From Actinomycetota bacterium (GTDB lineage: Bacteria; Actinomycetota; Acidimicrobiia; Actinomarinales; Actinomarinaceae), in contig JACNGE010000011.1 in assembly GCA_014384285.1 (NCBI GenBank), forward strand, positions 20,617-84,616: DNA of 64,000 bases, written 5' to 3'. The notes below the pieces were generated by a model. The model searched no databases and was not told where the DNA came from. It saw only the letters and a list, made by a program, of their open reading frames with translations. Each line of letters starts with the position of its first letter. Within the stretch, counting starts at the first letter, position 1. The position numbers and the translations under genes are program-made. This document shows positions 10,783-57,437 of the stretch, one piece after another.

Positions 10783-10867
10783 AGCTCCTAATGCAATAGG
10801 TGATTCTAAAATAATTAATTTCCCTTACTACTTAATTACATTCTATATTCAAAGAGTTTTGGTTTGC

Positions 10868-10887: not shown

Positions 10888-10935
10888 TAATTTTAGATAT
10901 AACGGCTTAGAAGAATGGTGCTAAGTAGATGTGTC

Positions 10936-20118: not shown

Positions 20119-20186
20119 ATGCTATAAAGGATATCAAAAGTAACTAAAAGATTCTTTTAAATTAATAACTAGTTTTAGAGTCTAGA

Positions 20187-21044: not shown

Positions 21045-21156
21045 TGGCTACAGATTTGCATCAGTTTATCAAAACTACATAAGTTGCTCTTAGTTCGAAT
21101 TCTACGGACCATTACACACACCATAATCGTATACAAACTCTTAAGTGAATGATCAC

Positions 21157-21744
21157 CTATAAACTTCCACAATATTTTCTTAAAACGCCTGTGGGATAAC
21201 TGTCGCTGACAACAAAATCGGGATCTGGTGTTAGGGTGTTCTGAGATTTTGAAGATAAAAGGTCTCTGTATTCATCAGAAGTTCTCCAGAATTTAATACT
21301 GTACTCTTGATTTTCATCCCACCATTGAACTTCATCTTGAATGGTCCAGTTATTTCCGATTGAAACTAAGTGTTTTTCAAGAGCTGTATTAGCATTTTTC
21401 GAATCTTCGAAATTTCCATAAAAGCCATTGATTAGACTTTGTAAATCTAAATTATTAATTTCATAGTTGGTAAGAATACTATCTAGGCCATTAAGTCCTA
21501 TTTTGTTAATTCTTAAAGCTTCATACACATAATCTAGTTTTGTAGCGTCGACGTAAGAGTATGTTTTATATATTTCACTTTCGTATGCTTCAATCTGAAT
21601 TACATCAAATATTTTTTCAATCTCATCAGCTAGCTCAATACAGTTATTTATTTTATTATCACTATCTGAAATTGTGTTTGTTGTACAGAAACTAAAAAAA
21701 ATTGAAAGTATTAATACTTTATGAATCAATTTTTTCTTTAACAT
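21157..21744 (-). CDS. hypothetical lipoprotein
   Basis: 195 aa. Signal peptide with lipobox-like ..FFSFC. No known domain. Confidence 0.35.
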   Translation of the reverse strand: MLKKKLIHKVLILSIFFSFCTTNTISDSDNKINNCIELADEIEKIFDVIQIEAYESEIYKTYSYVDATKLDYVYEALRINKIGLNGLDSILTNYEINNLDLQSLINGFYGNFEDSKNANTALEKHLVSIGNNWTIQDEVQWWDENQEYSIKFWRTSDEYRDLLSSKSQNTLTPDPDFVVSDSYPTGVLRKYCGSL

Positions 21745-22909: not shown

Positions 22910-22954
22910 TTATACATTGTTGTACGCTTTTCGATTTAGATGTGATTTAAAATA

Positions 22955-23941: not shown

Positions 23942-23942
23942 A

Positions 23943-25013
23943 TTAGTACATCGTTGTAACAGTTAGGTGATGAGGTCTGTGGGTAGCATGATATTGTTTC
24001 CATAATCTGTAATCAAGTTGGGGGATTATTATTTGTTTATCTAACGGTCTTCTTTTATTAACCTCTTCAGTAAGTTTTGCTGTTGTGTATAAACTTACAG
24101 CTCTAATTTCGACCTCTTCTCGGGAATCCCTCTCTATTAGCTCACCATTCATAATTTTATTATTTAATGTTTCTGAATATGTAATAATTTTCATTACTTC
24201 TAGCGCAACAGGTACAATGTAATCTGCAAATGCGCTCATTTTATGCATATCTTCAACCACAAAATGGCCCGCTCCAGAGAGTTCTCCATGAATTCCCCAA
24301 AAGGCCAACTGAGCTAACTTATAAAAATGGACTTCATGTCCATCTTCAAGAATTGTTTTATCATCAAATCTTGGGAATTCAGTAATTAATCTTTCAATTA
24401 AACCCTCGCCATTACTGTACAATTTCTTGGGGCCTTGATTTATAAAGTTAATCCAATCACCTTTATATTCAGAGGATAACTTTTCTCCGACCTCATTTAA
24501 TATTTCTAACCTTTCACTCATCATTGGCATTTCAATATTTCCAGAAAATATTTTATTCAATTCGTCCATGTCTAAAGATGAAAGTACCCCGCCATCATAA
24601 AGCTTTATACCAGATGCAAGAGCCTCATTTATCTGCGTAAACATAGCCTCACTATCTGAAAAAATATATCCATCCCGTTCAATTTCATATTTAATACTCT
24701 TTTCAAAGTCTGTAAAAGCAAAATTAAGAATATTTATAAGAAGTGTTGTTCTAATTACTTCCTCAGGATTTTTTTTTGTTTTATTATTTTGAGGAGATGG
24801 AAATTCTTCATATGCAAGCCAATCGGCAACATTTTCAATTTCTTGATTGTTTATTTGAATTTCTCTAAGATTGTTGATAACAGGATTAAGAGAACTTAAT
24901 ACTTTTGCATCCCAATCAATATCCATATTTAAAATCATACTAGAAATGATTCTCAGATGGGGATATAATCTAATGATGAATCCTAAAATATGTGTGGTTG
25001 GAAGCTCCAACAT
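23943..25013 (-). CDS. hypothetical protein; possibly a DUF2419/Qng1-like queuosine-salvage hydrolase (speculative)
   Basis: ~330-356 aa. Start is ambiguous: the internal Mets near 24938/24926 are more likely, because the long ORF overlaps the divergent ribokinase start. No motif I can verify. Context is nucleoside hydrolases plus ribokinase. Confidence 0.4.
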   Translation of the reverse strand: MLELPTTHILGFIIRLYPHLRIISSMILNMDIDWDAKVLSSLNPVINNLREIQINNQEIENVADWLAYEEFPSPQNNKTKKNPEEVIRTTLLINILNFAFTDFEKSIKYEIERDGYIFSDSEAMFTQINEALASGIKLYDGGVLSSLDMDELNKIFSGNIEMPMMSERLEILNEVGEKLSSEYKGDWINFINQGPKKLYSNGEGLIERLITEFPRFDDKTILEDGHEVHFYKLAQLAFWGIHGELSGAGHFVVEDMHKMSAFADYIVPVALEVMKIITYSETLNNKIMNGELIERDSREEVEIRAVSLYTTAKLTEEVNKRRPLDKQIIIPQLDYRLWKQYHATHRPHHLTVTTMY

Positions 25014-25848
25014 TGACCAAATTTCCTATGTAGAAACGATACCCTCAGACGGAGAAACTGTTTTTGGTAATTCTTATCAGATGGGTTTTGGCGGCAAGGG
25101 TGCTAATCAGGCAGTGATGGCTGGACTGTTAGGTGCCGAGACTTTCATGATTACCTGCCTTGGTGATGATATTTATGCAGATATGACAATTGACAATTAC
25201 ATCAAATGTGGTGTGAATGTGGAGCATGTTCAAAGGGTAGATGGTTCAAGTGGCGTTGCGCCAATTTGGGTCGACAAATCTGGACAAAATAGAATAATTG
25301 TAGTTTCTGGAGCAAATGAGAAAATTGATGCGAAAAAAGCTGCTTCCTCATTACTGGAAATAGAAGATTTAAATGTATTAATAGGCCAATTTGAAATACC
25401 TATGAGTGTTACACAGGAGGTATTTTCAGTTGCAAAGAATAATGGTATTAAAACAATACTTAATCCAGCACCCGCAAAAATTCCCTCAGATGAATTAATG
25501 CAACTAACCGATTGGTTTGTCCCAAATGAAGTAGAGTTCTCAACAATTACGGGAACAGATGCTTATAACGATGACAACTTAATCTCATATGCAAATACAA
25601 TTTCATCTAATCTAATTGTTACCCTTGGGGGAAATGGAGCAGCACTTGTTTCAGAAAATTCAGTAGTAAAAATATCAGCTCCAAATGTTTCTGCTGTTGA
25701 CACGACTGGTGCGGGTGATGCATTTGTTGGTGCCTTTGCTTTTGGGTTAGCATCAGGAGAGTCTCCAGAAGAATCAATATCTCTAGGTGTTAAAAAAGCA
25801 AGTGACTCCGTTACAAGAGCTGGGACACAATCTTCATACAAGGCTTAA
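24973..25848 (+). CDS. rbsK: ribokinase (PfkB family)
   Basis: MMNPKICVVGSSNIDQ N-terminus, GFGGKGANQAVMA (ribokinase GG/anion-hole motif), and C-terminal DTTGAGDAFVGAF. The ORF as listed starts earlier, at 24871. Confidence 0.8.
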   Translation: MMNPKICVVGSSNIDQISYVETIPSDGETVFGNSYQMGFGGKGANQAVMAGLLGAETFMITCLGDDIYADMTIDNYIKCGVNVEHVQRVDGSSGVAPIWVDKSGQNRIIVVSGANEKIDAKKAASSLLEIEDLNVLIGQFEIPMSVTQEVFSVAKNNGIKTILNPAPAKIPSDELMQLTDWFVPNEVEFSTITGTDAYNDDNLISYANTISSNLIVTLGGNGAALVSENSVVKISAPNVSAVDTTGAGDAFVGAFAFGLASGESPEESISLGVKKASDSVTRAGTQSSYKA

Positions 25849-25854
25849 ATTAAG

Positions 25855-26127
25855 ATGGTAGTAGTTCCTCTAAGTCAGCAGTACATCATACTTTTAGCAC
25901 TTGTAGGTATCTTTATTGTGTTTTTGATAGAAGATAGAAGATTAAAAAATAAAAATCACATATTAAATAAAATTTTTCACTATTTTCCTAATTACAATAG
26001 TGATTTACGTGTTGGATTTTCTCTTATAACAATTTCTGCAATTTGTGCTATTTTCGGGGTTTATCTATACACTTCATTAGTAGTTTTAGCTGGAGGGCTC
26101 ATTTTCCTTTACAAGGGAAGAAATTAA
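25855..26127 (+). CDS. small membrane protein (hypothetical)
   Basis: 90 aa, three hydrophobic segments. Confidence 0.3.
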   Translation: MVVVPLSQQYIILLALVGIFIVFLIEDRRLKNKNHILNKIFHYFPNYNSDLRVGFSLITISAICAIFGVYLYTSLVVLAGGLIFLYKGRN

Positions 26128-27398
26128 GAATCTTTAAGCCAGAATCTAACTTTTGGTAATACGGGGTCTATTAATTTAAAAATAACTATTCCAACCCCTA
26201 TAGTTGCTGAACTCATGGAAAGTATCAAGATTAATGAGACAACACTGTATGAGTTAAAAAAACCTACTAATAGTGGGACAATAATGAATATGGGTACTCT
26301 GAAAGCAGTGAGCATTGCGTTAGTATTTCCAGCATCACCAACATCTCCGAGCTCTACTGCTAAGTTACTCTGTGATGTATTAAAGATGCCGAGACCTAGG
26401 CCCGCAAATATAAATATAAGATTCTGAAAGTTTGAGCCGCCATAAATAAAGATTGCGCTTGCTGCAAAATGCATACTAAGTCCAAGTATGTATGTGTACT
26501 TAAACCCAATTCTGATTCCTATAATTGGAACAAAAAAACTTCCTATGCTTTGACTTAATAATAAAAGTGTCACCCACATACCTAATCTATTTGTTGGTAT
26601 GTCGTAAAAGCTAATTAACCAAATACTAAAAAATGGAGTGATTGCCTCAGGTATAGCACTAAAAAAATTTGATAAAGATACTGCCTTAAGACCTGTATTA
26701 TTTTTATATATATGTTTCCACATATTCAATTGGTCTCTTAAAGCTACAATTGAAATTTTTGTACTTGACTTAGAACCCGTTTGAGGTTCTCGTATTAATA
26801 AAAGGGGAATCATTGAAATACTCGTGATCCCTATCACCAACATTAATCCAGATAGATAGCCCTCTATTAAGCCACTTTCAGCAATCCTTAAATCAACATA
26901 TCTTGAAACTAAATATCCTGCAGCAGAACCAAAAGTTAGATTTAGTGCAAAAAATACTGATCTAAATTTATAAAGTACTCGAGATACAAGATCAAAATAT
27001 GAGGGAAGGATGGCTCCAGCGCTAAATACAAAAATTATATAAGCTATCACAAAAAAAATAAATCCCATTTTATATGTTGAGTAATTGCTCAAGGTTAAAG
27101 CTAGAAGTATTATTCCAAATCTCTCACAAATACCCCAAAAAATAACTCCTCTCTTTGAGTCTTGTTCAATATTTCTTCTTGCAGATGTTAAAAATTGTGA
27201 AAAAATTCCTACAGCATAAAAAATAATTACAATCAAAGATGGAGTGTACCACTTATCGGAAATGGTCAACGCAACATCTGGTAGGTAGCTACCTGGAATT
27301 AAGAGTGCAAATGCTGATCCGAAACCAATCGCATCAAAGATAAACATGCAATAATTAAATACATAATTTTTTTTTATAAAATCTTGAGTATTAGCCAA
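26124..27398 (-). CDS. polytopic membrane transporter, MFS-like
   Basis: 424 aa, ~12 TM helices. Last gene of the minus-strand operon with the ECF T and PNP genes. Confidence 0.45.
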   Translation of the reverse strand: MANTQDFIKKNYVFNYCMFIFDAIGFGSAFALLIPGSYLPDVALTISDKWYTPSLIVIIFYAVGIFSQFLTSARRNIEQDSKRGVIFWGICERFGIILLALTLSNYSTYKMGFIFFVIAYIIFVFSAGAILPSYFDLVSRVLYKFRSVFFALNLTFGSAAGYLVSRYVDLRIAESGLIEGYLSGLMLVIGITSISMIPLLLIREPQTGSKSSTKISIVALRDQLNMWKHIYKNNTGLKAVSLSNFFSAIPEAITPFFSIWLISFYDIPTNRLGMWVTLLLLSQSIGSFFVPIIGIRIGFKYTYILGLSMHFAASAIFIYGGSNFQNLIFIFAGLGLGIFNTSQSNLAVELGDVGDAGNTNAMLTAFRVPIFIIVPLLVGFFNSYSVVSLILILSMSSATIGVGIVIFKLIDPVLPKVRFWLKDS

Positions 27399-27407
27399 TT
27401 GGTTTTA

Positions 27408-28322
27408 TTACTTTTTGCCAAAAAGTCTTATAGCAAATCCTGCTCCAAAAATTATTGTTAAAAAAGCAATTCCACAAAAGGCTACAATAAAAACTCCTAC
27501 GTTTGGACTAAGAGAAAATCCAGTACTTGGTATAAATGAATTTAAATTAAATTTTGCATACATGCTTAATATAATTGGCGTCAATGCGGAAATTGATAAA
27601 AAAGTATCTCTTTTTGAAAATTCTTTATACCTCATAAGAGTTCTCTCGTTTTTTGAACCGAATGCTCTTGTTTCCAAGCTCATTGATAATTGCTGAACTC
27701 TATCGATAGCTCCAGCAAACACTGGAATTATACTCGGCAAAAGAGCTTTGAAACCTTTAGCTTCCATAGCTCTTGATTTCTGTGCAGATAAAATAATAGA
27801 AAACTCTCTCTGCATTATTGGAATTAATTGCAGAGTTGTTGTAATCATAAAATTTACTGTATAGGGGACTTTAGCTCTTTGTAACGATGCTGATAATTCA
27901 CCTGGGTGGAGAGTCATCAGCATCAAAATTGACCAAGTAACAATGCACAAAATTCTACTACTGAATAACATTCCATAAATTATTGAGTCCGTATAAAGAG
28001 AAAATGGTCCCAATTCAGCTAAATATTGAGGGTTGTCAAAAACTGCAGGTGGAACTATAGACTGCAAAAAAATCATAGCAAAAGTTGCAGGTCCAAAGAC
28101 TACCATTGTTCTTAAGTAGCTAGGAAAAGTTTTTGCAAGGACTACCATAGCTATACCTATGAGAGCAACTCCATAATTTATATATGGATTTTTATTAAAA
28201 AAGCAAAAAAAGACAAAAGACAAAACCCAATAAAATTTAACAAAGGGATGGATTTTGTGAAAAAAAGAATCTCCGGGTACGTAAGCCCCAATTGGTACAC
28301 TAGGCATTGTCTTCCTCCTCAA
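27408..28322 (-). CDS. ecfT: ECF transporter transmembrane (T) component, CbiQ/EcfT family
   Basis: 304 aa membrane protein. C-terminal ..LSMSLETRAFGSKNERT.. matches the conserved EcfT Ala-Arg-Gly/Phe coupling-helix region. Confidence 0.6.
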   Translation of the reverse strand: MRRKTMPSVPIGAYVPGDSFFHKIHPFVKFYWVLSFVFFCFFNKNPYINYGVALIGIAMVVLAKTFPSYLRTMVVFGPATFAMIFLQSIVPPAVFDNPQYLAELGPFSLYTDSIIYGMLFSSRILCIVTWSILMLMTLHPGELSASLQRAKVPYTVNFMITTTLQLIPIMQREFSIILSAQKSRAMEAKGFKALLPSIIPVFAGAIDRVQQLSMSLETRAFGSKNERTLMRYKEFSKRDTFLSISALTPIILSMYAKFNLNSFIPSTGFSLSPNVGVFIVAFCGIAFLTIIFGAGFAIRLFGKK

Positions 28323-29088
28323 TTTTTAAACTAGCTTCAAGAATCATTTTTACGGACTCTGACATATTTTTTTGGTATTCATCTTTGGTTAACGATTCTC
28401 CTGTAGCTTGATCGCCCGCAACTAAAAGGACTGCACCTGTACGAAGTCTTCTATATGAACCAACAACGAATAATGTGGCAGCTTCCATTTCTGAACATAA
28501 AACACCGCCTTTAACCCATGCATCCCATTTTTGTAATAATTCTGCAGCTATGGGCATGTCTTCAGGACTATGTTGTCCATAAAAAGAATCCTTCGATTGA
28601 ACAATTCCAACATGATGTGCTAGTTGAGCTTTCAGTGCTGCCTCTTTAAGGGCCATTACCATGTCATGAGAAGCCACTGCAGGAAATTCTATAGGCATAT
28701 ATTGGACTGAAGTACCTTCGAATCTAACTGCGCCTGTGGCTATTACCTTATCTCCGGCTTTTGTATATTCCTGCATTGCACCAGACGTACCCATTCTCAC
28801 TAATGTCTTAGCTCCTATATTTGCAAGTTCTTCAACAGCTATTGCTGTGGAAGGGCAACCTATACCTGTTGAAGTCACTGAAACAGATCTTCCTTTATAT
28901 TTTCCAGTCATTGTTTTATATTCTCTATTGTCAGCTACTAATTCTGCTGTATCAAAGTGATCAGCAATAAATTCTACTCTTCCTGGATCTCCTGGTAAGA
29001 TAACAAAATCTGCAACGTCACCTTTTTTCATCTGAATATGATATTGAATTTCACCTTTTAGGAGCCCACCTTTTTCTTTATTACTCAT
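28300..29088 (-). CDS. purine/uridine nucleoside phosphorylase, PNP/UDP family 1
   Basis: 262 aa. ..GDPGRVEFIA.. and ..VSVTSTGIGCPSTAIAVEEL..VRMGTSGA.. / ..SEMEAATLF.. are hallmarks of DeoD/Udp-type phosphorylases. Confidence 0.75.
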   Translation of the reverse strand: MSNKEKGGLLKGEIQYHIQMKKGDVADFVILPGDPGRVEFIADHFDTAELVADNREYKTMTGKYKGRSVSVTSTGIGCPSTAIAVEELANIGAKTLVRMGTSGAMQEYTKAGDKVIATGAVRFEGTSVQYMPIEFPAVASHDMVMALKEAALKAQLAHHVGIVQSKDSFYGQHSPEDMPIAAELLQKWDAWVKGGVLCSEMEAATLFVVGSYRRLRTGAVLLVAGDQATGESLTKDEYQKNMSESVKMILEASLKIEEEDNA

Positions 29089-29821
29089 TTTTTCTATCCT
29101 TTTCCATACTATTTATACCTTCTAGAACCATTTTTGTCATTTTTTTTACAGTTTCTTCATCTGAAACCTCTACAGCTAAAACAGCACTAGCTTTTAATTT
29201 TTTTATTTGAGCTAACGTAAATAAAGTAGCTGCCTCCATTTCAGATGCTCCTACTCCTCCTTTTTGCCAAGCTGTCCATTTGTTGTTGAGATAAGGTGCA
29301 ACTGGCATCCTTTCTGGCTCAACTTCTCCAAAAAATGAATCTTTTGACTGACAAGTCCCGACTTTTGTTTCAATACCTAAATCTTTCGATGCTTTTATTA
29401 GATTTGCAACTAATTCATAATCAGCAACTGCTGGGTATTCAATTGGTATGTACTGTTTTGAAGTTCCATCATCTCTTACTGCACCCGTCGCAATAAAGAT
29501 ATCTCCTTTTTTTACTGTTTTTTCTACTGCTCCTGAGGTACCAATTCTAATAAAAACTTCAGCACCTATATAAGCTAGCTCTTCGACTGCAATCGCTGTT
29601 GAAGGACATCCTATTCCTGTTGAAACTACAGATACATCTGTACCTTTATAGGTTCCTCTTGCAGCATTAAACTCTCTATTACTTCCTTGCATTTCATAAT
29701 CGTCAAATACTGAAGCAATTATTTCTACCCTGTTTGGATCGCCCGGTACTATTACATACCGGGCAACCTCGTCGATCGTTAAGGGTAAGTGTTTAACCTG
29801 CTCAACTTTGTTATTGAACAT
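29081..29821 (-). CDS. second PNP/UDP family 1 nucleoside phosphorylase
   Basis: 246 aa. ..VIVPGDPNRVEIIA..VSVVSTGIGCPSTAIAVEEL..IRIGTSGA..SEMEAATLF.. Paralogous to the preceding gene. Confidence 0.75.
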   Translation of the reverse strand: MFNNKVEQVKHLPLTIDEVARYVIVPGDPNRVEIIASVFDDYEMQGSNREFNAARGTYKGTDVSVVSTGIGCPSTAIAVEELAYIGAEVFIRIGTSGAVEKTVKKGDIFIATGAVRDDGTSKQYIPIEYPAVADYELVANLIKASKDLGIETKVGTCQSKDSFFGEVEPERMPVAPYLNNKWTAWQKGGVGASEMEAATLFTLAQIKKLKASAVLAVEVSDEETVKKMTKMVLEGINSMEKDRKNE

Positions 29822-29852
29822 AATTAAATACCTTCGTTTATTCTTTTAGTTT

Positions 29853-30044
29853 TTAACTTTTTAATCTAATAACAGCTATTCCACACAATATTGTAAGGAA
29901 ACCAGCTAAAAGACATAGCCCTGCAAGCATTCCGAATGCTGCATCACCTTGTATCTCTGATGCTGCGTATGGATACACCATATACATCACTCCGAGACCA
30001 GCAATACCAGCACCAAGACCATCTTTAGATGTTACTTCTTTCAT
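29853..30044 (-). CDS. small membrane protein (hypothetical, 63 aa)
   Basis: Two hydrophobic segments. Lies between the ECF S gene and the PNP genes. Confidence 0.3.
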   Translation of the reverse strand: MKEVTSKDGLGAGIAGLGVMYMVYPYAASEIQGDAAFGMLAGLCLLAGFLTILCGIAVIRLKS

Positions 30045-30055
30045 ATTATCTACTC

Positions 30056-30745
30056 CTATAGGTTCATAGATACGACTGTAAGAATAACTCCTACAACTGT
30101 ACCTGCTGTAATTAAGACAACTTTACCCATGCTTTCAGCTTTCATTATTGGTCCAGTTACCTGCAAATTAGTAGGTAGTGCTCCAATTATTGCTAACGCC
30201 AAGAATGACGAAAGAATTTTATCAGCTGAAGAAACAATTATGTTACTTGAAAATACTGAAGTCCACATATCTCCTCCTGCTGCAAGTAAACCTGCAGTAA
30301 GAACATCTGATGCGTGACCTGTTGCTCCTCCGAACACAAATATAACTATTGGTGCAGCCATTAACGAAACGCCTACGCCTGAAGCTATAGACAATCCAAA
30401 GAATTTGAGCTTGTCGTTTGCCCAACCCCATTTAGTTCCATATCCCCAAATCAATGCACCGACAACGTTACACGCTGCAAATGGTATTGATGTTGGACCT
30501 GTGATGAAGCCAGCTGTAACGTTGGTAATAACGCCAACAAGTGCTCCCCACCAAGGACCGATTGTCATAGCAACAACTGCTGTTCCAATCATATCTAGGA
30601 ATATAGGTAATTTTAGCGCACTGGCTACTGTTCCTCCAATTACGTTCATAACGGAAGCAACTGGTACTAACGCAATAACATAAGTTAAAGGTATACCACC
30701 GCCTGTCGCACTACTTAGTTGTTGTGAAGTATCTTGATCTTTCAC
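30056..30745 (-). CDS. putative ECF transporter substrate-specific (S) component
   Basis: 229 aa, ~6 TM helices, Gly-rich. ..LPIFLDMIGTAVV.. resembles S-component core helices. Position between the ecfA genes and ecfT. Confidence 0.45.
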   Translation of the reverse strand: MKDQDTSQQLSSATGGGIPLTYVIALVPVASVMNVIGGTVASALKLPIFLDMIGTAVVAMTIGPWWGALVGVITNVTAGFITGPTSIPFAACNVVGALIWGYGTKWGWANDKLKFFGLSIASGVGVSLMAAPIVIFVFGGATGHASDVLTAGLLAAGGDMWTSVFSSNIIVSSADKILSSFLALAIIGALPTNLQVTGPIMKAESMGKVVLITAGTVVGVILTVVSMNL

Positions 30746-30790
30746 AAATAACCCCCTTCTATATTTATATTTTTTTAATATAAATTAGTT

Positions 30791-30900
30791 TTTTTTACGG
30801 TGGACCTTTCAAAACACCGTCAGATTTTTTTACGGTGGGCCATGAAACACCGTCAGATTTTTTTACGGTGGGCCATGAAACACCGTCAGGTTTTTTTACG
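30791..30900. repeat. three tandem ~34-bp repeats, each a 6-bp-stem hairpin (ACGGTG-N10-12-CACCGT) flanked by T/A runs
   Basis: Seen directly: tacgg recurs at 30796, 30831, 30865 and 30898. Units: ttttttACGGTGgacctttcaaaaCACCGTcagat / tttttttACGGTGggccatgaaaCACCGTcagat / ttttttACGGTGggccatgaaaCACCGTcagg. Lies in the leader of the ECF S gene. Confidence 0.7.
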
Positions 30901-30936
30901 GTGGTTTACCTAATAAACATCGCTATATAATTTAAT
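30888..30936. promoter_or_regulatory. copy 1 of a ~48-bp conserved element (aggtttttttacggtggtttacctaataaacatcgctatataattta); includes a -10-like TATAAT when read on the + strand
   Basis: ~85% identical to 32731-32778, the second copy upstream of ecfA1 and the P450 gene. Read from the sequence. Confidence 0.35.
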
Positions 30937-31064
30937 TTATTACGAACTCGAAGGAGAAAGTTTAAACTAATTCACATATAACTTGATTTTATAAAATTAA
31001 AAGTAACTTTGCTAATTCTTACATAATTTTTTTTAATTTAATTTGCTTTTTCTAGATATTTTTT

Positions 31065-31874
31065 TTATGTGTATTTAAGAGCATCTTCAACAGAAAGTAT
31101 TGCCTTTTTATTATTTCCAAAATTTTTCGCCTCTGCAAAAGCGGTTATCTGTGGAGGTTTTAAATTGGTTTTTTCTAATATAGGTTTATTAATGAATAGA
31201 TCAGTTGGTGGTCCGTCAAATATTAATTCAGTATTACACATTACAAGAACTCTGTCTGTCTCTTCAACCACTAATGGCATGTCATGGGATACAACAATTA
31301 CTGTTTTTCCTTGACTTTTTAGCTTTTCCATGGAGTCTTTAATAGTTTTAACTCCTGAATAATCTTGACCTGTAGTAGGTTCATCAAGAACTACTACATT
31401 AGGTTCCATTGCAATTATTGAGGCCATCGCTACTGTTTTTCTTAAAGAAAAACCGAGACGATAGGGATTTAGTTCCAAATACTCTGTAAGTAAAAATTCT
31501 TCTGCTATTTCTATAACTTTTGTTTCTACTTCAGACTCATTTAACCCGATATTTTTCAACCCAAAAGAAAGCTCTTCATGAACTGAAGCTGCAAATATCT
31601 GGTGATTAGGATTCTGAAATACATAGCCCACCTGCCTAGCAAGTTTGCCTACTGGGTTTTCTCTTGTATTGAGATCTCCTATCATGATGTCTCCATCTGT
31701 TGGCTTAAGCAAACCATTGAAATGTTTTACAAGTGTTGTTTTACCTGATCCATTTTGACCAACTACTGAAACTATCTCTCCTTGCTCAATAGTTACATCA
31801 ACATCTTTAATCGCTTGAACCCCATTTGGATAGGTGTGTGCTACTTTCGTACAATTTATATTTGTTTCACTCAT
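31065..31874 (-). CDS. ecfA: ECF transporter ATP-binding protein (EcfA2-like ABC ATPase)
   Basis: 269 aa. Walker A GQNGSGKTT, signature ..LSGGQ.. region, Walker B ..VVLDEPTTGQD.. Confidence 0.8.
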   Translation of the reverse strand: MSETNINCTKVAHTYPNGVQAIKDVDVTIEQGEIVSVVGQNGSGKTTLVKHFNGLLKPTDGDIMIGDLNTRENPVGKLARQVGYVFQNPNHQIFAASVHEELSFGLKNIGLNESEVETKVIEIAEEFLLTEYLELNPYRLGFSLRKTVAMASIIAMEPNVVVLDEPTTGQDYSGVKTIKDSMEKLKSQGKTVIVVSHDMPLVVEETDRVLVMCNTELIFDGPPTDLFINKPILEKTNLKPPQITAFAEAKNFGNNKKAILSVEDALKYT

Positions 31875-32704
31875 TATTTATATCCTTTCACTGCTTGGTC
31901 CACTGTAACTGGGATTCCTTCTTTAAATTTATCAGGAACTCTTGAAGCAAAATCTGTAATTTGAGGTATTCTCACTCCCACTTCACTTTGAATATTAACA
32001 ATATTTGGGAAAATCTCTTCAGGGCTTCCAACTTGAGTAATTTTACCTTCTTCTAATAGAATGACTTTATCGGCATACTCAGCTATTACTTCGACTTCAT
32101 GTTCTGCAATTATGACTGTCAACCCTTCCTCCTGATTGATTCGTCTAGTGACTGTAAAAACTTCTTCTTTGCCTATGGGATCAAGGTTAGAAGTTGGCTC
32201 ATCAAGAACTAAAATCTGAGGCTTCATTGAAAGAGCGGAGGCCATGGCAAGCCTCTGTTGTTGGCCCCCAGAAATTTCAAATGGTGACCTTTCTTCAAAT
32301 CCTGCGAGTCCTACTAGTTCCAATGATGTAGTTATATTTTTAATTATTGTTTCTTTATCGACACCTAAATTCTGTAGTCCTAAAGCGACTTCTTCAAAAA
32401 CAGTTAGCTGACTCATTTGAAATTCTGGATTATCAAAAACACTTCCAACTTTACTCGCAAGCTCTCTTACTGGAATTTTAGGAGGTACTTCACCTGCCAC
32501 TTCAATTTTTCCAAACATATCAGCCTGGATCATATTTGGGACTATCCCGTTTATTGACAAGCAGAGAGTAGTTTTTCCGGCTCCGTGAGCTCCCAAAATG
32601 GCTATAAACTCTCCTTCTTCAACTTCAAGAGAGATTTTATCTAAAGCTTTTTCTTCTTGTTCTAAATATTGAACTGAAAGGTTTTCAATTTTAATAATGG
32701 ACAT
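31874..32704 (-). CDS. ecfA: ECF transporter ATP-binding protein (EcfA1-like ABC ATPase)
   Basis: 276 aa. Walker A GAHGAGKTT, ..ISGGQQQRLAMASAL.., Walker B ..LVLDEPTSNLD.. Overlaps the next ATPase gene by 1 nt. Confidence 0.8.
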   Translation of the reverse strand: MSIIKIENLSVQYLEQEEKALDKISLEVEEGEFIAILGAHGAGKTTLCLSINGIVPNMIQADMFGKIEVAGEVPPKIPVRELASKVGSVFDNPEFQMSQLTVFEEVALGLQNLGVDKETIIKNITTSLELVGLAGFEERSPFEISGGQQQRLAMASALSMKPQILVLDEPTSNLDPIGKEEVFTVTRRINQEEGLTVIIAEHEVEVIAEYADKVILLEEGKITQVGSPEEIFPNIVNIQSEVGVRIPQITDFASRVPDKFKEGIPVTVDQAVKGYK

Positions 32705-32730
32705 TAATACCCCTTTTTTTTGTAAAATTC

Positions 32731-32778
32731 AGGTTTTTTTACGAAGGTTATCCTATTAAACATCGATTATATAACTTA
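32731..32778. promoter_or_regulatory. copy 2 of the ~48-bp conserved element, in the divergent ecfA1 / P450 intergenic region
   Basis: aggtttttttacgaaggttatcctattaaacatcgattatataactta. On the + strand it has a TTATCC-N16-TATAAC promoter-like arrangement pointing at the P450 gene. Confidence 0.35.
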
Positions 32779-32898
32779 AATAGTTGTAAGTTTTTATATT
32801 TTTTTATAATATCATCTTGTTAGATTTCTTGCTTTTGTTTTAGATAATTTTTTAATTTTTTTTTGACAGACTCATTTTTAGCTACTTAAAATTGAAAC

Positions 32899-34143
32899 AT
32901 GAATATTCCAGAACTACATTTACCGACTTTAGATCAAGATTTTATCAAAGATCCTTATTCCACCTTTGAAGAATATAGAAGTAAAACTCCAATTTTTTGG
33001 GATGAAATTAATAATCTCTTGTTTGTAACGCGTCATAAAGATGTTAGAAATATACAAACAAGTAAGATGTTTGGAACAACACATAGTCATATAGAAAATT
33101 TTGAAGGTGATGTAGAATCCTCAAATGTTCCCCTGACTTATGTAGGTTATAAAAGATCAGAAAAATATGAATCTTACGATTACTTCTGGAAATCAGAGCA
33201 ATTTTCACTTTTAAACCTTGAAGGAACTATGCATAAAGAGTTACGAGGATTAGTTGCTAAAGCTTTTTTACCAAGATCTGTTCAAAAACTTGTTCCATTT
33301 ATGGAAAAGAAATCTAAAGAATTATTAAGTAATACGAACGGCTCGAACTTTGATTTGCTTAAAGATTATGCCCAACCTTATTCAATTAGCATTATTGGAG
33401 AACTTCTAGGAGTTCCTGCATCAGACCATGCAAAGTTTTTAGACTGGTCTCATAAAATAGTAAAAATGTACGATTTTAAAGTTGATGATGTTGATGCTAT
33501 GAATGCCGAGAATGCTGCCAAAGACTTTTTTGATTACGCTCAAGATTTACTCAACAGAAGAAGGATTGACCCCCAAGATGATATGATTACTCGACTATCT
33601 CAAGTAAGCGAGAATGATGTTCGATTAACTGACCATCAAATTATTTGTACAATAATACTTCTATTAAATGCAGGTCACGAGGCTACAGTAAATACTCTCG
33701 GAAATGGATTTTATGGATTACTCTCCAATGAAAAAACTTATGAAGAAGTATCAGAAGAATCATCAACTATGACGGATGTTGTTGAGGAACTTATTAGGTG
33801 GGATAGTCCTCTACAGTTTTTTCAAAGATATGTTCTTGAAGATACTGAAATTGAAAACTTTAAGATTCCAAAAGGCTCTAAGGTTGCAATTTTACTGGGT
33901 TCAGCCAATAGGGACCCTGCGGTCTTTGAAAATCCTTCAGAGTTAAATTTTAATAGGGAAAATAAAGACCATAGCAGCTGGGGTGGTGGTATCCATTTCT
34001 GTATTGGAGCTCATCTGGCAAGGTTAGAGTTAGAGGTCTCTTTTGAGCATCTTCTTAAAAAGAATCTACTATTAAAAACTGAGCCTGAAAGAACTGGAGC
34101 TTTTGGTATTAGAGGTTACGAGAACCTCTTAGTAACAACTTAA
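32899..34143 (+). CDS. cytochrome P450
   Basis: 414 aa. Heme-thiolate loop WGGGIHFCIGAHLARLE (FxxGxxxCxG), ExxR EELIRWDSP, and I-helix-like ..LLLNAGHEAT.. Confidence 0.85.
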   Translation: MNIPELHLPTLDQDFIKDPYSTFEEYRSKTPIFWDEINNLLFVTRHKDVRNIQTSKMFGTTHSHIENFEGDVESSNVPLTYVGYKRSEKYESYDYFWKSEQFSLLNLEGTMHKELRGLVAKAFLPRSVQKLVPFMEKKSKELLSNTNGSNFDLLKDYAQPYSISIIGELLGVPASDHAKFLDWSHKIVKMYDFKVDDVDAMNAENAAKDFFDYAQDLLNRRRIDPQDDMITRLSQVSENDVRLTDHQIICTIILLLNAGHEATVNTLGNGFYGLLSNEKTYEEVSEESSTMTDVVEELIRWDSPLQFFQRYVLEDTEIENFKIPKGSKVAILLGSANRDPAVFENPSELNFNRENKDHSSWGGGIHFCIGAHLARLELEVSFEHLLKKNLLLKTEPERTGAFGIRGYENLLVTT

Positions 34144-34154
34144 ATAATTTTAAT

Positions 34155-34658
34155 TTAAGAACTAAATTCTTTTATTGCAGATAAAAGTTCATCTATATTG
34201 AGTACTTTTGTAGAAATCATTCCTTCAGTAAAGAGATTTCTATATCTTCTTTCTTCAGCTGTAATCGCTATTACTGGTTTCTCATTAGCATATGTGAACC
34301 CAATTTCAGAGGCTGTACCTGAGTCAATATCCTGTCCAGTTATTAGTGCAACAGTTGCATCTGACCAGTTAAGTGCATCTAAATCTGCCTTAAATATGGC
34401 ATCCTTTGTTGATTGAGTCATATTGTTATCTTTAAATTCTTCAGGATCAATTACAAGTCCGGAAACTTTTGTTTTATCCCTATGTGGCACGAAACACTCA
34501 TATCCCGCTTCTTCTAAAACTGCTGCTATGTCTTCAAGATATTTTTTTTCATGTACGTTAAATAGTGGTCCTGCGATGTATATTTTCTTAATCATATTAT
34601 TTAAACTAAAAGCTTTTCGCTGAATCAACAAGTTAAAAAAGTAGTATTTTTCTACCAA
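34155..34658 (-). CDS. nucleoside 2-deoxyribosyltransferase family protein (possible nucleoside/nucleotide N-glycosidase)
   Basis: 167 aa. ..IYIAGPLFN.. N-terminal motif and ..DSGTASEIGFTYA.. near the C-terminus match the NDT/DNPH1/MilB-type signature, including the catalytic Glu. Confidence 0.65.
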   Translation of the reverse strand: MVEKYYFFNLLIQRKAFSLNNMIKKIYIAGPLFNVHEKKYLEDIAAVLEEAGYECFVPHRDKTKVSGLVIDPEEFKDNNMTQSTKDAIFKADLDALNWSDATVALITGQDIDSGTASEIGFTYANEKPVIAITAEERRYRNLFTEGMISTKVLNIDELLSAIKEFSS

Positions 34659-41455: not shown

Positions 41456-41677
41456 ATGTATTATTTATTAGCCTCAGGAATAGTTCTAATTATTTTTAGA
41501 TACTTTAATCTGATCCCAAGTTTGTCGAATAGGTTTTGGAGATATGTTGATTATGTTCTACTAGTTTCCGCTTTTGTAATACTTCTTTCAAGAATTCCAC
41601 CATTTTTTTCTGGGATACTTCTTAGTGGTGTGGTTTTTTTTGCTTGGAGAAAAGGCTGGTTTGACAAACTACGTTAG
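41456..41677 (+). CDS. small hydrophobic ORF (hypothetical, 73 aa)
   Basis: Two TM-like segments. Convergent with the HExxH gene. Weak. Confidence 0.2.
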   Translation: MYYLLASGIVLIIFRYFNLIPSLSNRFWRYVDYVLLVSAFVILLSRIPPFFSGILLSGVVFFAWRKGWFDKLR

Positions 41678-42771
41678 GGAATTATCTCCAATAATACCTC
41701 TATAGGCTGAGTAGCCCACTCGTCGAACTCAGCAATCATCACATCAGCTGATTTGCCAAAATTAGATTTAAAAGCTTCTTCAAAACCTAAGTCTTCAATT
41801 TGGGTCCAAAAGTTAACTCTGAAGATTTCTTCGCTTGTGTTGTGAATCAAGTATGCAACAAACCAAGTTAAAACATCGTAGCTTTGGAATGATTCGTTAT
41901 ACCCTAACTCTCTTAAGCTTCTTCCTTCATTAAGGTATGCATTAATAGTCTGAGCTTTGTACTCCATTTCTTGTTTGAGATATCCTGCGTCGATTCCTGG
42001 TTCTTTTGAATACCAGTATTGTGCCATATATTCTGCTCCGCCCTCCATTAAAAATGGAACCTGTACTTCGTCTCCGTTAAAGTAGATATTGCGATTACTA
42101 GTTCTCCAGTCACCATCTGTATCAGTAGCTGGTACGGATAAATTTGCATGCTGATATACATGGAAATATTCATGAAGAATTACTTTTTTATAATCTTCCT
42201 CTTCAGGACCTGGATATTTAGATGACATGATAAGTGCGTTGAAATAGTATCCAATATAATCTCTGATGTAGGAACTTACTGCAGCTCCTCCCTCGTTAAC
42301 GTATCTATAAAATGGAGACCATCCATCACCACTATCATAAGGATCTCCGTTTGCACAATCCCACTTTTTATTCCATGAAGGATCTTTTTGTGTTCTAACC
42401 TCACACCATTTTTTATCTAGCGCTATAACTTCGTCTTTACCTTCCCCAACAATCCATATTTCGAGAGGTCCGTAGTTGCCCCAAAGTTCAATAGCTTTAT
42501 CAACCCATTCGGCTGTAATTTCAATTGTTTCTTGAGATACATCCGATGCAGCATAGACTTCCGGCTGTGCATCAGTTGCTCCCCAGAAAATTGAATTAAC
42601 TGAATCTTCAGAACTTTCAACTAATTTTGATTCCTCTTCAAGTATCTGCTTTTCGTCATTTTGTAGCTCTTCTTCAACTATTAGTTTTTTCTCCTCAACT
42701 GAAGTAGATAGGGGTTCGGGTGTACCTCCACAAAAAGAAACTAGAAGTAATAAAATTAATGTTTTTTTCAT
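41674..42771 (-). CDS. secreted/lipoprotein putative zinc metallopeptidase (HExxH)
   Basis: 365 aa. Signal peptide with Cys (..LLVSFCGG..). ..VILHEYFHVYQH.. (HExxH), then ..EGGAEYMAQYW.. ~45 aa downstream (a possible third-ligand Glu). Confidence 0.5.
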   Translation of the reverse strand: MKKTLILLLLVSFCGGTPEPLSTSVEEKKLIVEEELQNDEKQILEEESKLVESSEDSVNSIFWGATDAQPEVYAASDVSQETIEITAEWVDKAIELWGNYGPLEIWIVGEGKDEVIALDKKWCEVRTQKDPSWNKKWDCANGDPYDSGDGWSPFYRYVNEGGAAVSSYIRDYIGYYFNALIMSSKYPGPEEEDYKKVILHEYFHVYQHANLSVPATDTDGDWRTSNRNIYFNGDEVQVPFLMEGGAEYMAQYWYSKEPGIDAGYLKQEMEYKAQTINAYLNEGRSLRELGYNESFQSYDVLTWFVAYLIHNTSEEIFRVNFWTQIEDLGFEEAFKSNFGKSADVMIAEFDEWATQPIEVLLEIIP

Positions 42772-43050: not shown

Positions 43051-43650
43051 TTAATCATTTCTCGTGGGGACAAGTATCGTCACAAAATGTGAGTACGAGC
43101 CAATTTCACACTTAACACTTTTCATATTGTTTAACTTCTTCTGAATGAGTTCTGTAATTTTATATACAAAATAAAAATTTTTTGGCATGATGTCTACCGC
43201 TTGTGCCCGAAAGATTCCAGTGCAGTTTAAAAGAAGTTTTTTACTTTCTTCATCTTCTGTCAGATAAAAATGTAGCTCCCTGCAACACTTTGCTTCATCA
43301 GTGTCTTGATGTTTCCACCATGAATTATTCATCATAATGACAGCTCTCTTAGATAGTGGAAAACTATTCAAACAGTCCACTACGTTGGAAACCTTTGATC
43401 CCATTTCAGATGAATAATCTCCTTGGAGTCCTCCTCTATATTCGGTTTCATATTTTACTTTTTCTTCTTGGGAAATAGGTAGTTCACAATTTTTTCTTGC
43501 ATAGTAATCCAAGGTTTCAAAGTCGAATAAATCAGTAATTATGGTTGCATTTTCTTCATTAAAGTTATTAATATTTCCATGAAAATTATTTATAGGGGCT
43601 ATTTTTGTTGCAGCTGCTTGCATTTCTTCAGCGCTGTCATAATTATTCAT
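43051..43650 (-). CDS. short thymidylate-synthase-fold protein (ThyA / dNMP-hydroxymethylase superfamily), N-terminally divergent
   Basis: ~200 aa from the Met at 43650. ..[57 protein letters not shown] is collinear with ThyA ..[53 protein letters not shown]. The catalytic Cys, and the Arg/Asp/Asn that contact substrate, are retained. Confidence 0.6.
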   Translation of the reverse strand: [199 protein letters not shown]

Positions 43651-43660
43651 ACACTTTATT

Positions 43661-44944
43661 TTAATCAGTAACGATCTCTTTAACTTGAATCGAAAGCTTT
43701 TTAAGATTTTTATTATTGTAATTGAATATCCACAGAAGTACATATAAAACTCCTACTATAAAAAATAATAAAGCATAACCTCTTCCAGGTCCGGTTCCTA
43801 CCAGGGGAGACAAGATATCTGCATTTTCTGGATAAAAAGTGAATTCTAAGTAGTCTCCTAATGGCCCAGCAATAATAACCCCTAGAGGACGTAACATTTG
43901 AGCAATCGTACCTCTGAGTGCCAAAGCTCTACCTCTAATATCTTCAGTTGTAATGGATAGCCATGCTCCAGAAGATACAGTTTGTTGGACTGTTCCACTC
44001 ACTCCATTGATTATACCGTGAATGCATAAGAGAAATATACTTGGCCTTATTGACCCTAAAATTAAACTTAATCCACTTAACAGTCCCATATATATAGCAA
44101 CCTTTAAATTTCCCTGAAGTTTATCAGCCAATCGTAAAGAAATAATTGAACCAAGTAGAAAAGCCAAACCAATACTCGACTCAACAATACCAAGCCCTCT
44201 TGCATCAGTAAAGCTCAGAATCATTGGGGGTAGCAGTACTGAAGTAAAACCCCACAAAAAGTTAGCTATCGAGAGGATGGAGACTAAAGCGAGTAAGCCT
44301 TTTTGTTTTTTTAGCCAGCTATAAGCTTGAACTAAGTCAAAATAAACATTTCTAAAACTTAATTTATCCTTAACTTCCACTTTCTTACTTTTGAAGAAAG
44401 TTATAGTTGCTATCCCAAAGATACACGTAATAATGTCAACAAGTATTACTCCTGGTAAACCAAAGAATGCGTAAATAAAAGCTCCTCCTATTGGCGCAAT
44501 TAGAACAGAAATTGCTTCTGCGCTTTCAAATAAAGCTGATACTTTTGTTACTTCATTCTTTTTAACAACATCCCCCAAGAATGCACTCCAAGTTGTCCAG
44601 TGAGCTATTTCAAAAATTCCAAAAGCAAGTGCAAATGGTATCAAAAGAGTTAGTGTCAAAATATTATTCAATGCAAGATATCCAACAATGCACATCAATA
44701 CTGCAATTGTTAAATCGTAAATAATAATTAATCTTTTTCTGGGAAACCTATCTGCGAGCACTCCTCCAAAGGGTCCAGTAACAACACCAACTATTGCAAC
44801 AGTGAACAAAATCGTAGAAAGGGCACTAGCTCTTCCTGTCGTTTCATATACCCAAACTCCAATAGCAAAAAAAGACATACCTGAACCTGTCCAAGATATT
44901 GTTTGTCCAAACCAAAGTAAATATATTTTTTTATCCATAGCCAA
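43661..44944 (-). CDS. MFS transporter
   Basis: 427 aa, 12 TM helices. ..GVLADRFPRKRL.. is the MFS loop 2-3 motif (G-x-L-x-D-R-x-G-R-K/R). Confidence 0.6.
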   Translation of the reverse strand: MAMDKKIYLLWFGQTISWTGSGMSFFAIGVWVYETTGRASALSTILFTVAIVGVVTGPFGGVLADRFPRKRLIIIYDLTIAVLMCIVGYLALNNILTLTLLIPFALAFGIFEIAHWTTWSAFLGDVVKKNEVTKVSALFESAEAISVLIAPIGGAFIYAFFGLPGVILVDIITCIFGIATITFFKSKKVEVKDKLSFRNVYFDLVQAYSWLKKQKGLLALVSILSIANFLWGFTSVLLPPMILSFTDARGLGIVESSIGLAFLLGSIISLRLADKLQGNLKVAIYMGLLSGLSLILGSIRPSIFLLCIHGIINGVSGTVQQTVSSGAWLSITTEDIRGRALALRGTIAQMLRPLGVIIAGPLGDYLEFTFYPENADILSPLVGTGPGRGYALLFFIVGVLYVLLWIFNYNNKNLKKLSIQVKEIVTD

Positions 44945-56159: not shown

Positions 56160-57437
56160 TTAATTTTTTATATGTATTTTTAAGTCTTTTCTTGGAAAAG
56201 GAATAGGTGCAGGATTAACTATAAGTGGTTCTGTTGATGAAATCTCCTCGATGTTTGAAACTAATTTATAAATGACATTTTTAAACAAATAACTAGCAAA
56301 GAACTTCCCAAGGCAGGTGTGTGCTCCCCCAGAAAATGGGTAATAAGCTTCATTTGGTTCTTCTGTGTTTAAAAATCGCCTTGGATTGTATTTCTCAGGT
56401 TCCTGCCAGTAACGATTATCATTATGTAAAACAAGGGGACCAATAGCAACATAAGTTCCTGCCTCTAATTTATAATTATCAACAACTGTATCCCTCATAA
56501 CATATCTTACTGAGAAAGGGACAGGTGGGTACATTCTCATAGCTTCAGAAAATAAAGACTCCCCTTTAATACCATTTTTTAAGTCTGTGGTATCTGTATA
56601 AGACATCTCACTACATTCCTCTCTCAATTCTTGATAAAAAGTCTGGTCTATAGAGAGATGGTGAATAGCAGAAGTTAATGTACTTGTAGTTGTGTCATGA
56701 GCAGCGAGTAGTAAAAAAATCATGTGCTCAGCAATTTCATAATTGCTTAATCCACCTTCATGTTTATTTGTTTTAACTAATTCTGCAAACAAAGTATTTG
56801 ATTCTGTATTTACATTTTCTGCTTTATTTTCAAAATATTCAAGTAGGGACTTTCTAGCTTTAAGGCCTTTTCTTAACTTGGTAAAAGGTAATGGGATTCT
56901 TACCACAGAGGTTGCAGATTTGATTGCATCGGTAAACAACTTTTCTAGTTCCTTTTGTCTAGAGCTGTCAATTTCATCAAAGAAAAGTTCAAGGGAGATT
57001 TTAAACATTAACTCTTTTATGGTCGCATACAAGTTAAATGATTTGCTATTTTGTAGATCGTCAATCCAAGAGTCAAGCAAGGGTTGTACTATCTGTAAAT
57101 AGTTAGCTAAAGCATCTCGTCTAAAAGAGTCTTGTAGTAAACCTCTATGAAATCTATGATCATCAAAATCTCTTAACATCAAACCATTTTCAAAGGTCTT
57201 TCCTAGAGAAAATTCCCATCCATGCTTGGATGAAAAATTATCTTCTGTGTCAAGATAAATGTGTTTTGTTGCACTAGGGGTCATAAACAATGTCACTCTT
57301 TTGTGCAGAATGGAGATTTCGAAGATATCACCGTGCTTTTGTTGTAAGTTTTTAACTAATGATAAAGCATCATTATTAAATTTTATTGAGTGACCAAAAA
57401 GGAAGTTTCCTTTATCTAGTGGTGGCTTAGTCATCAT
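56160..57437 (-). CDS. cytochrome P450 (second copy, different family)
   Basis: 425 aa. Heme loop FSGGAHTCLGKFFA (FxxGxxxCxG), ExxR ..SEAMRMYPPVP.., I-helix ..LLAAHDTTTS.. Confidence 0.8.
   Translation of the reverse strand: MMTKPPLDKGNFLFGHSIKFNNDALSLVKNLQQKHGDIFEISILHKRVTLFMTPSATKHIYLDTEDNFSSKHGWEFSLGKTFENGLMLRDFDDHRFHRGLLQDSFRRDALANYLQIVQPLLDSWIDDLQNSKSFNLYATIKELMFKISLELFFDEIDSSRQKELEKLFTDAIKSATSVVRIPLPFTKLRKGLKARKSLLEYFENKAENVNTESNTLFAELVKTNKHEGGLSNYEIAEHMIFLLLAAHDTTTSTLTSAIHHLSIDQTFYQELREECSEMSYTDTTDLKNGIKGESLFSEAMRMYPPVPFSVRYVMRDTVVDNYKLEAGTYVAIGPLVLHNDNRYWQEPEKYNPRRFLNTEEPNEAYYPFSGGAHTCLGKFFASYLFKNVIYKLVSNIEEISSTEPLIVNPAPIPFPRKDLKIHIKN

Follow-up and report, generated by a model that had tools for sequence, protein, structure and literature searches.

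A compact gene on the minus strand of the DNA analysed here (64,000 nucleotides of the Actinomycetota contig JACNGE010000011.1; 'the window' means this whole stretch) encodes a member of a previously uncharacterised and unannotated ~200-residue branch of the thymidylate synthase (TS)/dCMP hydroxymethylase superfamily. The gene occupies positions 43051–43650 and, judging from its conservation, encodes a real, intact and functional enzyme. Its active-site signature, as read from alignments, is uracil-type and possibly ribonucleotide-type; it has neither the folate-binding Asp of ThyA nor the Asn of flavin-dependent hydroxylases, and it carries new invariant charged residues. We are highly confident that the protein works as a TS-type homodimer with shared active sites, in which Cys122 adds to C6 of a pyrimidine 5′-monophosphate, Arg148 together with Lys101′ and Arg102′ holds the phosphate, and Asn158 reads a uracil-type base. 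We infer that the folate pocket has been rebuilt and that the enzyme probably performs a different chemistry on uracil nucleotides.

The mechanical open reading frame (ORF) that contains the gene spans 43051–43743 on the minus strand, with the reading ending at 43051. All 202 database homologues are ~199–203 residues long and begin at an internal Met (MNNYDSAEE...), which places the true coding sequence at 43051–43650. The remaining 93 nt overlap the 3′ end of the upstream MFS transporter gene in another frame and include the 10-nt spacer (43651–43660). The earlier note, made from the letters of the sequence alone, had described this ORF and an MFS gene on the same strand with a 10-nt gap after start correction; both are borne out, the start now being set by the homologues.

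43051–43650, minus strand (stop codon included): compact thymidylate-synthase-like protein of 199 residues, delimited by homologue starts
43651–43743, minus strand: spurious 5′ extension of the mechanical ORF, present in no homologue
43661–44944, minus strand: MFS transporter gene, 10 nt upstream (Pfam MFS_1, E = 3.2e-28; MFS_3, E = 7.6e-12)

Superfamily membership becomes visible at the level of the family. Searched alone, the 199-residue protein matched nothing in Pfam, in NCBIfam or among PDB sequences, even with the threshold relaxed to E = 10; PF00303 was unmatched at E ≤ 10, its gathering score not being reached, and a narrow profile of 27 close homologues found no match in the PDB. The profile search that the earlier note had proposed as a check thus came out negative for the single sequence against Pfam and positive for the family. 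A wide profile (A2), built from 31 of the most diverse family members, recovered AfhB (E = 1.4e-12), MilA (6.7e-11) and ThyA (3e-4 to 4e-3) among solved structures, and hhalign against E. coli ThyA gave a probability of 90.8% (E = 1.2e-6). Against PF00303, whose cut-off is 24.3 bits, two distant members reach 19.4 (P0140) and 16.1 bits (P0125), and distant members also match the PHROG thymidylate-synthase family. An AlphaFold2 model made from the 27-sequence alignment is confident (predicted local distance difference test, pLDDT, 85.5; predicted template modelling score, pTM, 0.86) and has the TS alpha/beta fold. In a structure search with this model the TS superfamily was the sole matching fold, with match figures of 17.6 for 9iqc (AfhB, the flavin-dependent dCMP hydroxylase of phage HY126), 15.6 for MilA, 13.9 for ThyA and 13.3 for T4 dCMP hydroxymethylase, against 5.4 for the best unrelated fold. 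Foldseek concurs, viral TS homologues were matched too, and 175 of the 199 residues superpose on AfhB. The wide profile, hhalign, the fold and the PF00303 and PHROG matches of distant members together establish homology to the superfamily. The branch is set apart from ordinary ThyA, which occurs in none of the 154 related clusters that an exhaustive profile search returned out of 1.84 billion cluster representatives. Family members (P0119, P0108, P0125, P0151) are labelled inconsistently in their source databases, variously as 'thymidylate synthase' and 'hypothetical protein'; the label of P0119, 'acetolactate synthase small subunit', is almost certainly wrong.

A decayed fragment or chance ORF with no function, which the lack of any Pfam, NCBIfam or PDB-sequence match for the single protein might suggest, has practically no probability and is refuted by the conservation data: there are more than 200 full-length homologues and 58 invariant positions in 27 aligned Actinomarina- and phage-type sequences (down to 52% identity), a confident fold and five lineage-specific gene contexts. 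A 5′-truncated thyA pseudogene, the refutation that the earlier note had foreseen, is likewise rejected, the gene being full length and conserved in all these homologues and the sequence upstream being the MFS gene, with no thyA remnant.

To locate the active site, residues were mapped by hhalign to E. coli ThyA and by hidden Markov model (HMM) alignments to AfhB and MilA; invariance refers to 31 diverse members. The conserved blocks are as follows.

43414–43437, minus strand: residues 72–79, RGGLQGDY, a family-specific near-invariant loop (conservation)
43339–43353, minus strand: residues 100–104, SKRAV; Lys101/Arg102 correspond to ThyA Arg126′/Arg127′, both invariant (alignments)
43267–43293, minus strand: residues 120–128, AKCCRELHF; the nucleophile Cys122 (43285–43287) corresponds to ThyA Cys146, invariant (alignments)
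43174–43212, minus strand: residues 147–159, holding Arg148, Ala151, Lys157 and Asn158 (hhalign; HMM alignments to AfhB and MilA)
43081–43101, minus strand: residues 184–190, GSYSHFV, corresponding to ThyA GDTHLY (conservation, alignments)

The ThyA core blocks that had been matched in the earlier note are reproduced by alignment (SKRAV with SRRII, AKC with APC, THF with THL), as is its assignment of the nucleophilic Cys. The superfamily's catalytic core is invariant in all 31 members: Cys122, Arg148 (ThyA Arg166) and the partner-subunit basic pair Lys101 and Arg102, which is predicted to bind phosphate in trans across the dimer. Trans action of Lys/Arg, and with it a TS-type dimer, is supported by the tandem protein P0181, whose domains have lost complementary motifs: domain 1 keeps Cys, RAQA, PKN and RGGxQGDY without SKR, and domain 2 keeps only SKRA. 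P0181 (744 residues, on a 4.4-kb JGI metagenome contig) is a natural single-chain pseudo-dimer.

Asn158, invariant, occupies the position of the uracil-reading ThyA Asn177. Asp versus Asn at this position separates cytosine from uracil substrates (PMC5175136; PMC13326640), and these findings, made on MilA and 5hodCMP synthases, support the uracil-type substrate deduced earlier from the Asn. Of the dUMP-binding Arg, Asp and Asn named at that stage, the first and last hold (R148 = R166, N158 = N177) and the Asp does not: the folate-binding Asp169 of ThyA aligns with Ala151, a position where most family members have Ala and a few have Asn or His, and Asp153 is variable within the family. Gln150 corresponds to ThyA Cys168, and Ala149 to ThyA Ser167 and MilA Ala176; Lys101 in turn matches MilA Lys133′. 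In MilA/BcmA, Lys133′ and Ala176 give ribonucleotide preference, which the A176S/K133R double mutant reverses (PMC5175136). Since Lys101/Ala149 reproduce this pair, the sequence suggests a UMP-type ribonucleotide as substrate.

The folate pocket of ThyA is where the protein departs most. Besides Asp169, Phe176 is replaced (by the invariant Lys157), as are Pro145 (by Lys121) and Leu143 (by Glu119, 43294–43296, just upstream of AKCCRELHF); Gly173 is deleted, and the C-terminal lid is absent. The chain stops 11 residues past His188 (ThyA His207), with Val190 in place of Tyr209. Lys121, Arg124 and Glu125, beside Cys122, are family-specific invariant charged residues. Because of these replacements the enzyme is probably not a methyl or hydroxymethyl transferase dependent on methylenetetrahydrofolate (CH2-THF), so that the CH2-THF-dependent methylase or hydroxymethylase first suggested for it is doubtful. 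The same mapping revises the picture of a truncated protein: it is indeed shorter than ThyA, but it is compact and not N-terminally truncated; its losses are chiefly the folate contacts and some 50 residues at the C-terminus. Profile methods leave the N-terminal half unaligned; by helix order, invariant Tyr50 would sit at the ThyA Glu58 position. The RGGLQGDY loop, of low confidence in the model, occupies the region that holds Trp80/Trp83/Tyr94 in ThyA, and from the order of secondary-structure elements Tyr79 may be the counterpart of Tyr94.

A C5 hydroxymethylase or methylase that depends on folate and takes UMP or dUMP as its substrate (of MilA, BcmA or dUMP-hydroxymethylase type), with phage and protist 2-oxoglutarate (2OG) oxygenases oxidising its product as in the polyoxin C5 series, has to be weighed against these data, and we consider it unlikely, if not strikingly so. 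The TS fold, catalytic Cys, Arg and Asn are all kept, together with the MilA-type Lys and Ala; enzymes with an acidic residue in place of Leu143 tend to make non-methyl products (PMC13326640), which makes Glu119 hydroxymethylase-like; and T4 dCMP hydroxymethylase (PDB 6a9a) is also C-terminally short, yet binds THF. The pterin-binding Asp (ThyA 169; MilA 'RAND'), however, is Ala here and Ala, Asn or His family-wide, and the invariant Lys at Phe176 and the deletion of Gly173 also speak against a folate site.

Gene neighbourhoods outside Actinomarina bear directly on function. The closest non-Actinomarina relatives (48–58% identity) and several deep branches lie on uncultured viral contigs, among them IMG/VR uncultivated virus genomes (UViGs) of 155–168 kb. 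In at least eight distinct uncultured-phage loci (GC content 33–57%) the gene order is always Tmk-like kinase, ~290-residue protein, TS-like protein, and the three genes often overlap or abut:

L011, 6436–8582: phage triad
L014, 6253–8746: phage triad
L019, 4189–6540: phage triad
L020, 4350–6528: phage triad
L021, 4148–6369: phage triad
L022, 1657–4600: phage triad
L024, 1940–4031: phage triad
L101: phage triad
L105: phage triad

The ~290-residue protein has an invariant HxD...H...R motif and weak matches to PhyH, 2OG-FeII_Oxy_3, TauD and WelO5 and belongs to no Pfam family; on the strength of the motif and these matches it is probably a 2OG/Fe(II) oxygenase. Its profile gave chance-level matches only in the PDB. 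Among cultured phages (INPHARED), neither the phage TS-like protein P0119 nor the ~290-residue partner had any match, and P0151 weakly matched ordinary phage TS/gp42 genes only; a literature search for TS homologues linked to 2OG oxygenases in phages returned nothing relevant. The triad looks like an undescribed nucleotide-modification pathway. The kinase neighbour also suits a folate-dependent route to a modified (d)NMP for DNA, although a thymine-hydroxylase-like partner would be partly redundant if the TS-like enzyme already made 5-hydroxymethyl-uridylate. One triad locus, L014, carries in addition several GIY-YIG/NUMOD homing-endonuclease genes and a faint Mom-family match (811–2798, 5488–6153, 10471–11994), a gene content that fits a phage with modified DNA. 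In a neighbour-joining tree a monophyletic Actinomarina clade is sister to a phage clade; the Actinomarina gene seems to have been acquired once and to be related to that of these phages.

Eukaryotic members were found in Mantamonas and Paulinella (EukProt) and on other contigs bearing V-ATPase or TTI1 genes. Here, too, oxygenases recur: P0181 is fused to a DIOX_N/2OG-FeII_Oxy domain, P0145 adjoins a 2OG-FeII_Oxy gene, an aldehyde dehydrogenase and a sugar-type MFS transporter, and P0143 adjoins another 2OG-FeII_Oxy gene. The clusters of a TS-like gene with a T7H-like 2OG oxygenase are:

L025, 3833–8405, and a matching GCA_041445565.1 contig: eukaryotic cluster
L026, 612–3051: eukaryotic cluster

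The best solved-structure match of both oxygenases is the thymine dioxygenase T7H (8.8e-32 for the P0145-adjacent enzyme, 1.2e-23 for the P0181 domain). The association with an oxygenase is thus seen in three independent ways, as phage triads, as the P0181 fusion and as the P0145/P0143 adjacency, and it involves two unrelated oxygenase families.

Among GTDB genomes the TS-like gene is found in Candidatus Actinomarina and one Actinomycetota metagenome-assembled genome; the window itself (GC content 35%) belongs to the Candidatus Actinomarina group. We compared 9 genome loci (L001–L010) with 80 metagenome loci (L028–L107), 77 of them on Actinomarina-type contigs, and found five recurrent, lineage-specific neighbourhoods among the latter:

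MFS gene directly upstream (the window's own lineage): 9 loci, TS-like identity to the window protein 87–99%
NDH-2 gene divergent upstream: 6 loci, identity ~70%
Alpha/beta hydrolase gene directly upstream: 9 loci, identity 61–64%
IU-type nucleoside hydrolase gene directly upstream: 21 loci, identity 57–63%
NDH-2 gene directly downstream: 10 loci, identity 59–60%

The nucleoside-hydrolase arrangement, which marks the largest Actinomarina clade, recurs in 4 distinct genome loci, with a gap to the TS-like gene of 3 nt there and of 6–7 nt in the metagenome loci. In L057 two more nucleoside-hydrolase paralogues, similar to those of the salvage gene set in the window (see below), lie just downstream of the TS-like gene. 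The TS-like gene seems to have been kept widely across the order, with surroundings that shift from one lineage to the next; the five neighbourhoods may correspond to the order's five described genera (PMC7771536). Co-transcription with the MFS gene, as first proposed, is likely for the window's own lineage (9 loci) and is not general, no MFS homologue having been found beside the TS-like gene in the other 68 contigs of Actinomarina type or in the 9 genome loci. A promoter and terminator scan around the pair saw no terminator-like site between the two genes and was not above shuffled controls. A functional tie between transporter and enzyme is uncertain. Within the window's lineage (L028, L030–L032, L035, L036) the TS-like gene also has a conserved downstream neighbour, in the window at 41674–42771 (minus strand), which encodes a 365-residue protein with a signal-peptide-like N-terminus, an HEYFH motif and no Pfam match.

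The earlier note had also linked the gene to a MilA/MilB-type pathway through an NDT-family gene at 34155–34658. That gene is real (Pfam Nuc_deoxyrib_tr, E = 2.3e-22) and lies 8.4 kb away, with unrelated genes in between. Neither the 9 genome loci (within 8–10 kb) nor the covered parts of the 77 Actinomarina-type metagenome contigs, many of which are short, showed an NDT homologue near the TS-like gene, and we have dropped the cluster idea; that no MilB/NDT partner turned up near the gene in the other Actinomarina loci examined counts against a folate-dependent MilA-type enzyme as well.

A minimal yet genuine thymidylate synthase, supplying dTMP in Actinomarinales and phages while a phage oxygenase then turns dTMP into 5-hydroxymethyl-dUMP, would suit the housekeeping-like combination of strong conservation with five lineage-specific contexts, the Asn177-type uracil reading with a catalytic Cys, and the JGI label 'thymidylate synthase' on some members. 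In addition, tblastn with E. coli ThyA and Thermotoga maritima ThyX found nothing significant in the window and ~200 kb of Actinomarina DNA; this is a small share of a genome, so the absence means little. With ThyA Asp169, Ser167, His147, Tyr209, Phe176 and the C-terminal lid all replaced and PF00303 unmatched, we regard such an enzyme as very improbable. A literature search linking Actinomarina to thymidylate synthase returned nothing relevant.

As for the chemistry itself, DNA C5-methyltransferases, which employ the same Cys–C6 addition, can dehydroxymethylate 5-hydroxymethylcytosine and decarboxylate 5-carboxycytosine in vitro. We tentatively favour an enzyme that uses Cys–C6 addition to remove or replace the oxidised C5 carbon of 5-hydroxymethyl-, 5-formyl- or 5-carboxy-uridylate. 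Its substrates would be C5-oxidised thymine-type uridylates (the 5-hydroxymethyl-, 5-formyl- or 5-carboxy-(d)UMP); addition of the Cys to C6 would render the C5–carbon bond labile, and the one-carbon group would then be removed, by decarboxylation or retro-hydroxymethylation giving UMP/dUMP, or substituted. The oxidised substrate would be supplied by the partner 2OG/Fe(II) oxygenase in phages and protists; Actinomarina, a scavenger of nucleosides, would obtain it by salvaging modified ones. Fungal thymidine salvage, which leads from thymine to uracil, includes nucleoside hydrolase and T7H (thymine-7-hydroxylase) among its steps (PMC4787775); the free-base counterpart of the step proposed here is the iso-orotate decarboxylase (IDCase) of that pathway, whose other steps are the family's neighbours. 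It is possible, if rather doubtful as a whole, that a folate-free TS-fold enzyme breaks or re-functionalises the C5–carbon bond of oxygenase-supplied oxidised thymine nucleotides, that the triad removes or hypermodifies thymine in phage DNA precursors, and that Actinomarina has domesticated the enzyme for modified-uridine salvage.

Several points weigh against this C5-carbon cleavage. For every family member the substrate, cofactor and reaction direction are deduced from sequence and context, and thymine-oxidising neighbours would fit equally well with an enzyme making a 5-methyl or 5-hydroxymethyl substrate. The ribose signature is carried over by analogy from MilA, a cytosine reader, and the N-terminal half, including the ThyA Glu58 position, is not reliably alignable. 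T7H is barely the best match for one of the two oxygenases (8.8e-32 vs 1.1e-30), and the neighbour-joining tree carries no support values. Within Actinomarina, searches of the window and the 9 genome loci turned up no oxygenase partner, no phage-type partner was seen beside the Actinomarina TS-like genes on the metagenome contigs, and the neighbours differ between lineages (MFS, NDH-2, alpha/beta hydrolase, nucleoside hydrolase), which makes context weak evidence in a streamlined genome.

The window also holds a dense set of nucleoside-salvage genes (19153–34658):

19153–20118 and 22955–23941: two IU-type nucleoside hydrolases
24871–25848: PfkB/ribokinase-like kinase
28300–29088 and 29081–29821: two PNP_UDP_1 phosphorylases
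27408–28322: CbiQ-like T component of an energy-coupling factor (ECF)-type transporter, with two ATP-binding cassette (ABC)-type ATPase ORFs at 31065–32704 (by reading only)
34155–34658: the NDT-family gene

Two cytochrome P450-like genes, at 32899–34143 (plus strand; Pfam E = 5e-31) and 56160–57437 (minus strand; by reading only), are present in this streamlined genome, and Rfam found no RNA family (no rRNA or tRNA) in the whole window.

The TS superfamily is a model for enzyme mechanism and a drug target, and most known pyrimidine hypermodifications of phages start from it. To our knowledge, all its members were thought to use folate until 2025, when the flavin-dependent 5hodCMP synthases broke the rule. 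The compact branch presents a third kind of active-site signature, with no folate Asp, no diagnostic Asn and new invariant Lys, Arg and Glu residues. Few streamlined actinobacterial groups are as abundant in the surface ocean as Candidatus Actinomarina, and the links to 2OG/Fe(II) oxygenases are recurrent and independently evolved in uncultured large phages and protists, so that the gene points to previously undescribed phage and protist gene modules. Its reaction could reveal a new step by which marine nucleoside scavengers salvage pyrimidines, a new pathway for modifying phage DNA precursors or, if Actinomarinales prove to have neither thyA nor thyX, an unrecognised minimal thymidylate synthase. 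Folate-free cleavage of the C5 carbon, if true, would convert thymine-type into uracil-type pyrimidines at the level of the nucleotide.

Among known systems, AfhB of phage HY126 (PDB 9iqc/9iqu; kin RB69 gp48 and DLP3 gp80) reads cytosine with Asp, whereas the compact protein has Asn158. The Asp169Asn replacement is diagnostic of flavin-dependent 5hodCMP synthases (PMC13326640); AfhB has this Asn and the compact protein Ala151. AfhB also has Arg/Ser in place of the MilA-type Lys/Ala, Lys157, Lys121, Arg124 and Glu125 have no counterpart in it, and its arabinosylation gene cluster is not found at the window gene. That the compact protein is nevertheless a flavin/O2-dependent C5 hydroxylase of the AfhB or RB69 gp48 type, turning a uracil nucleotide into 5-hydroxy-(d)UMP, is thus a distinctly unlikely alternative: a 2OG oxygenase partner would be needless to it, and the NDH-2 gene beside some Actinomarina members encodes a respiratory enzyme whose adjacency looks like plain synteny. 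The CMP 5-hydroxymethylases MilA/BcmA (PDB 5jnh, 5b6d) share the ribose-preference Lys and Ala; they differ in reading cytosine (MilA Asp186) and in keeping the folate Asp, and MilA, ~120 residues longer, has the N-glycosidase MilB as its partner. ThyA (EC 2.1.1.45, PF00303) has the same Asn177-type uracil reader, but the compact protein is 65 residues shorter, lacks the C-terminal lid and falls below the Pfam threshold. From ThyA to the compact protein Asp169 becomes Ala, Ser167 Ala, Arg126′ Lys, His147 Cys/Leu, Phe176 Lys and Tyr209 Val, and Gly173 is deleted. Finally, fungal thymidine salvage runs through nucleoside hydrolase, thymine-7-hydroxylase and IDCase, and the family's recurrent neighbours are of types found there: T7H-like 2OG oxygenases beside the eukaryotic members, an IU-type ribonucleoside hydrolase beside those of Actinomarina. 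Fungal IDCase removes the oxidised C5 carbon, the role that we propose for the compact family; it does so on a free base with a metal-dependent amidohydrolase fold, whereas the compact protein has a Cys-dependent TS fold and a nucleotide phosphate site, so that the likeness, drawn by analogy, would be a functional one only.

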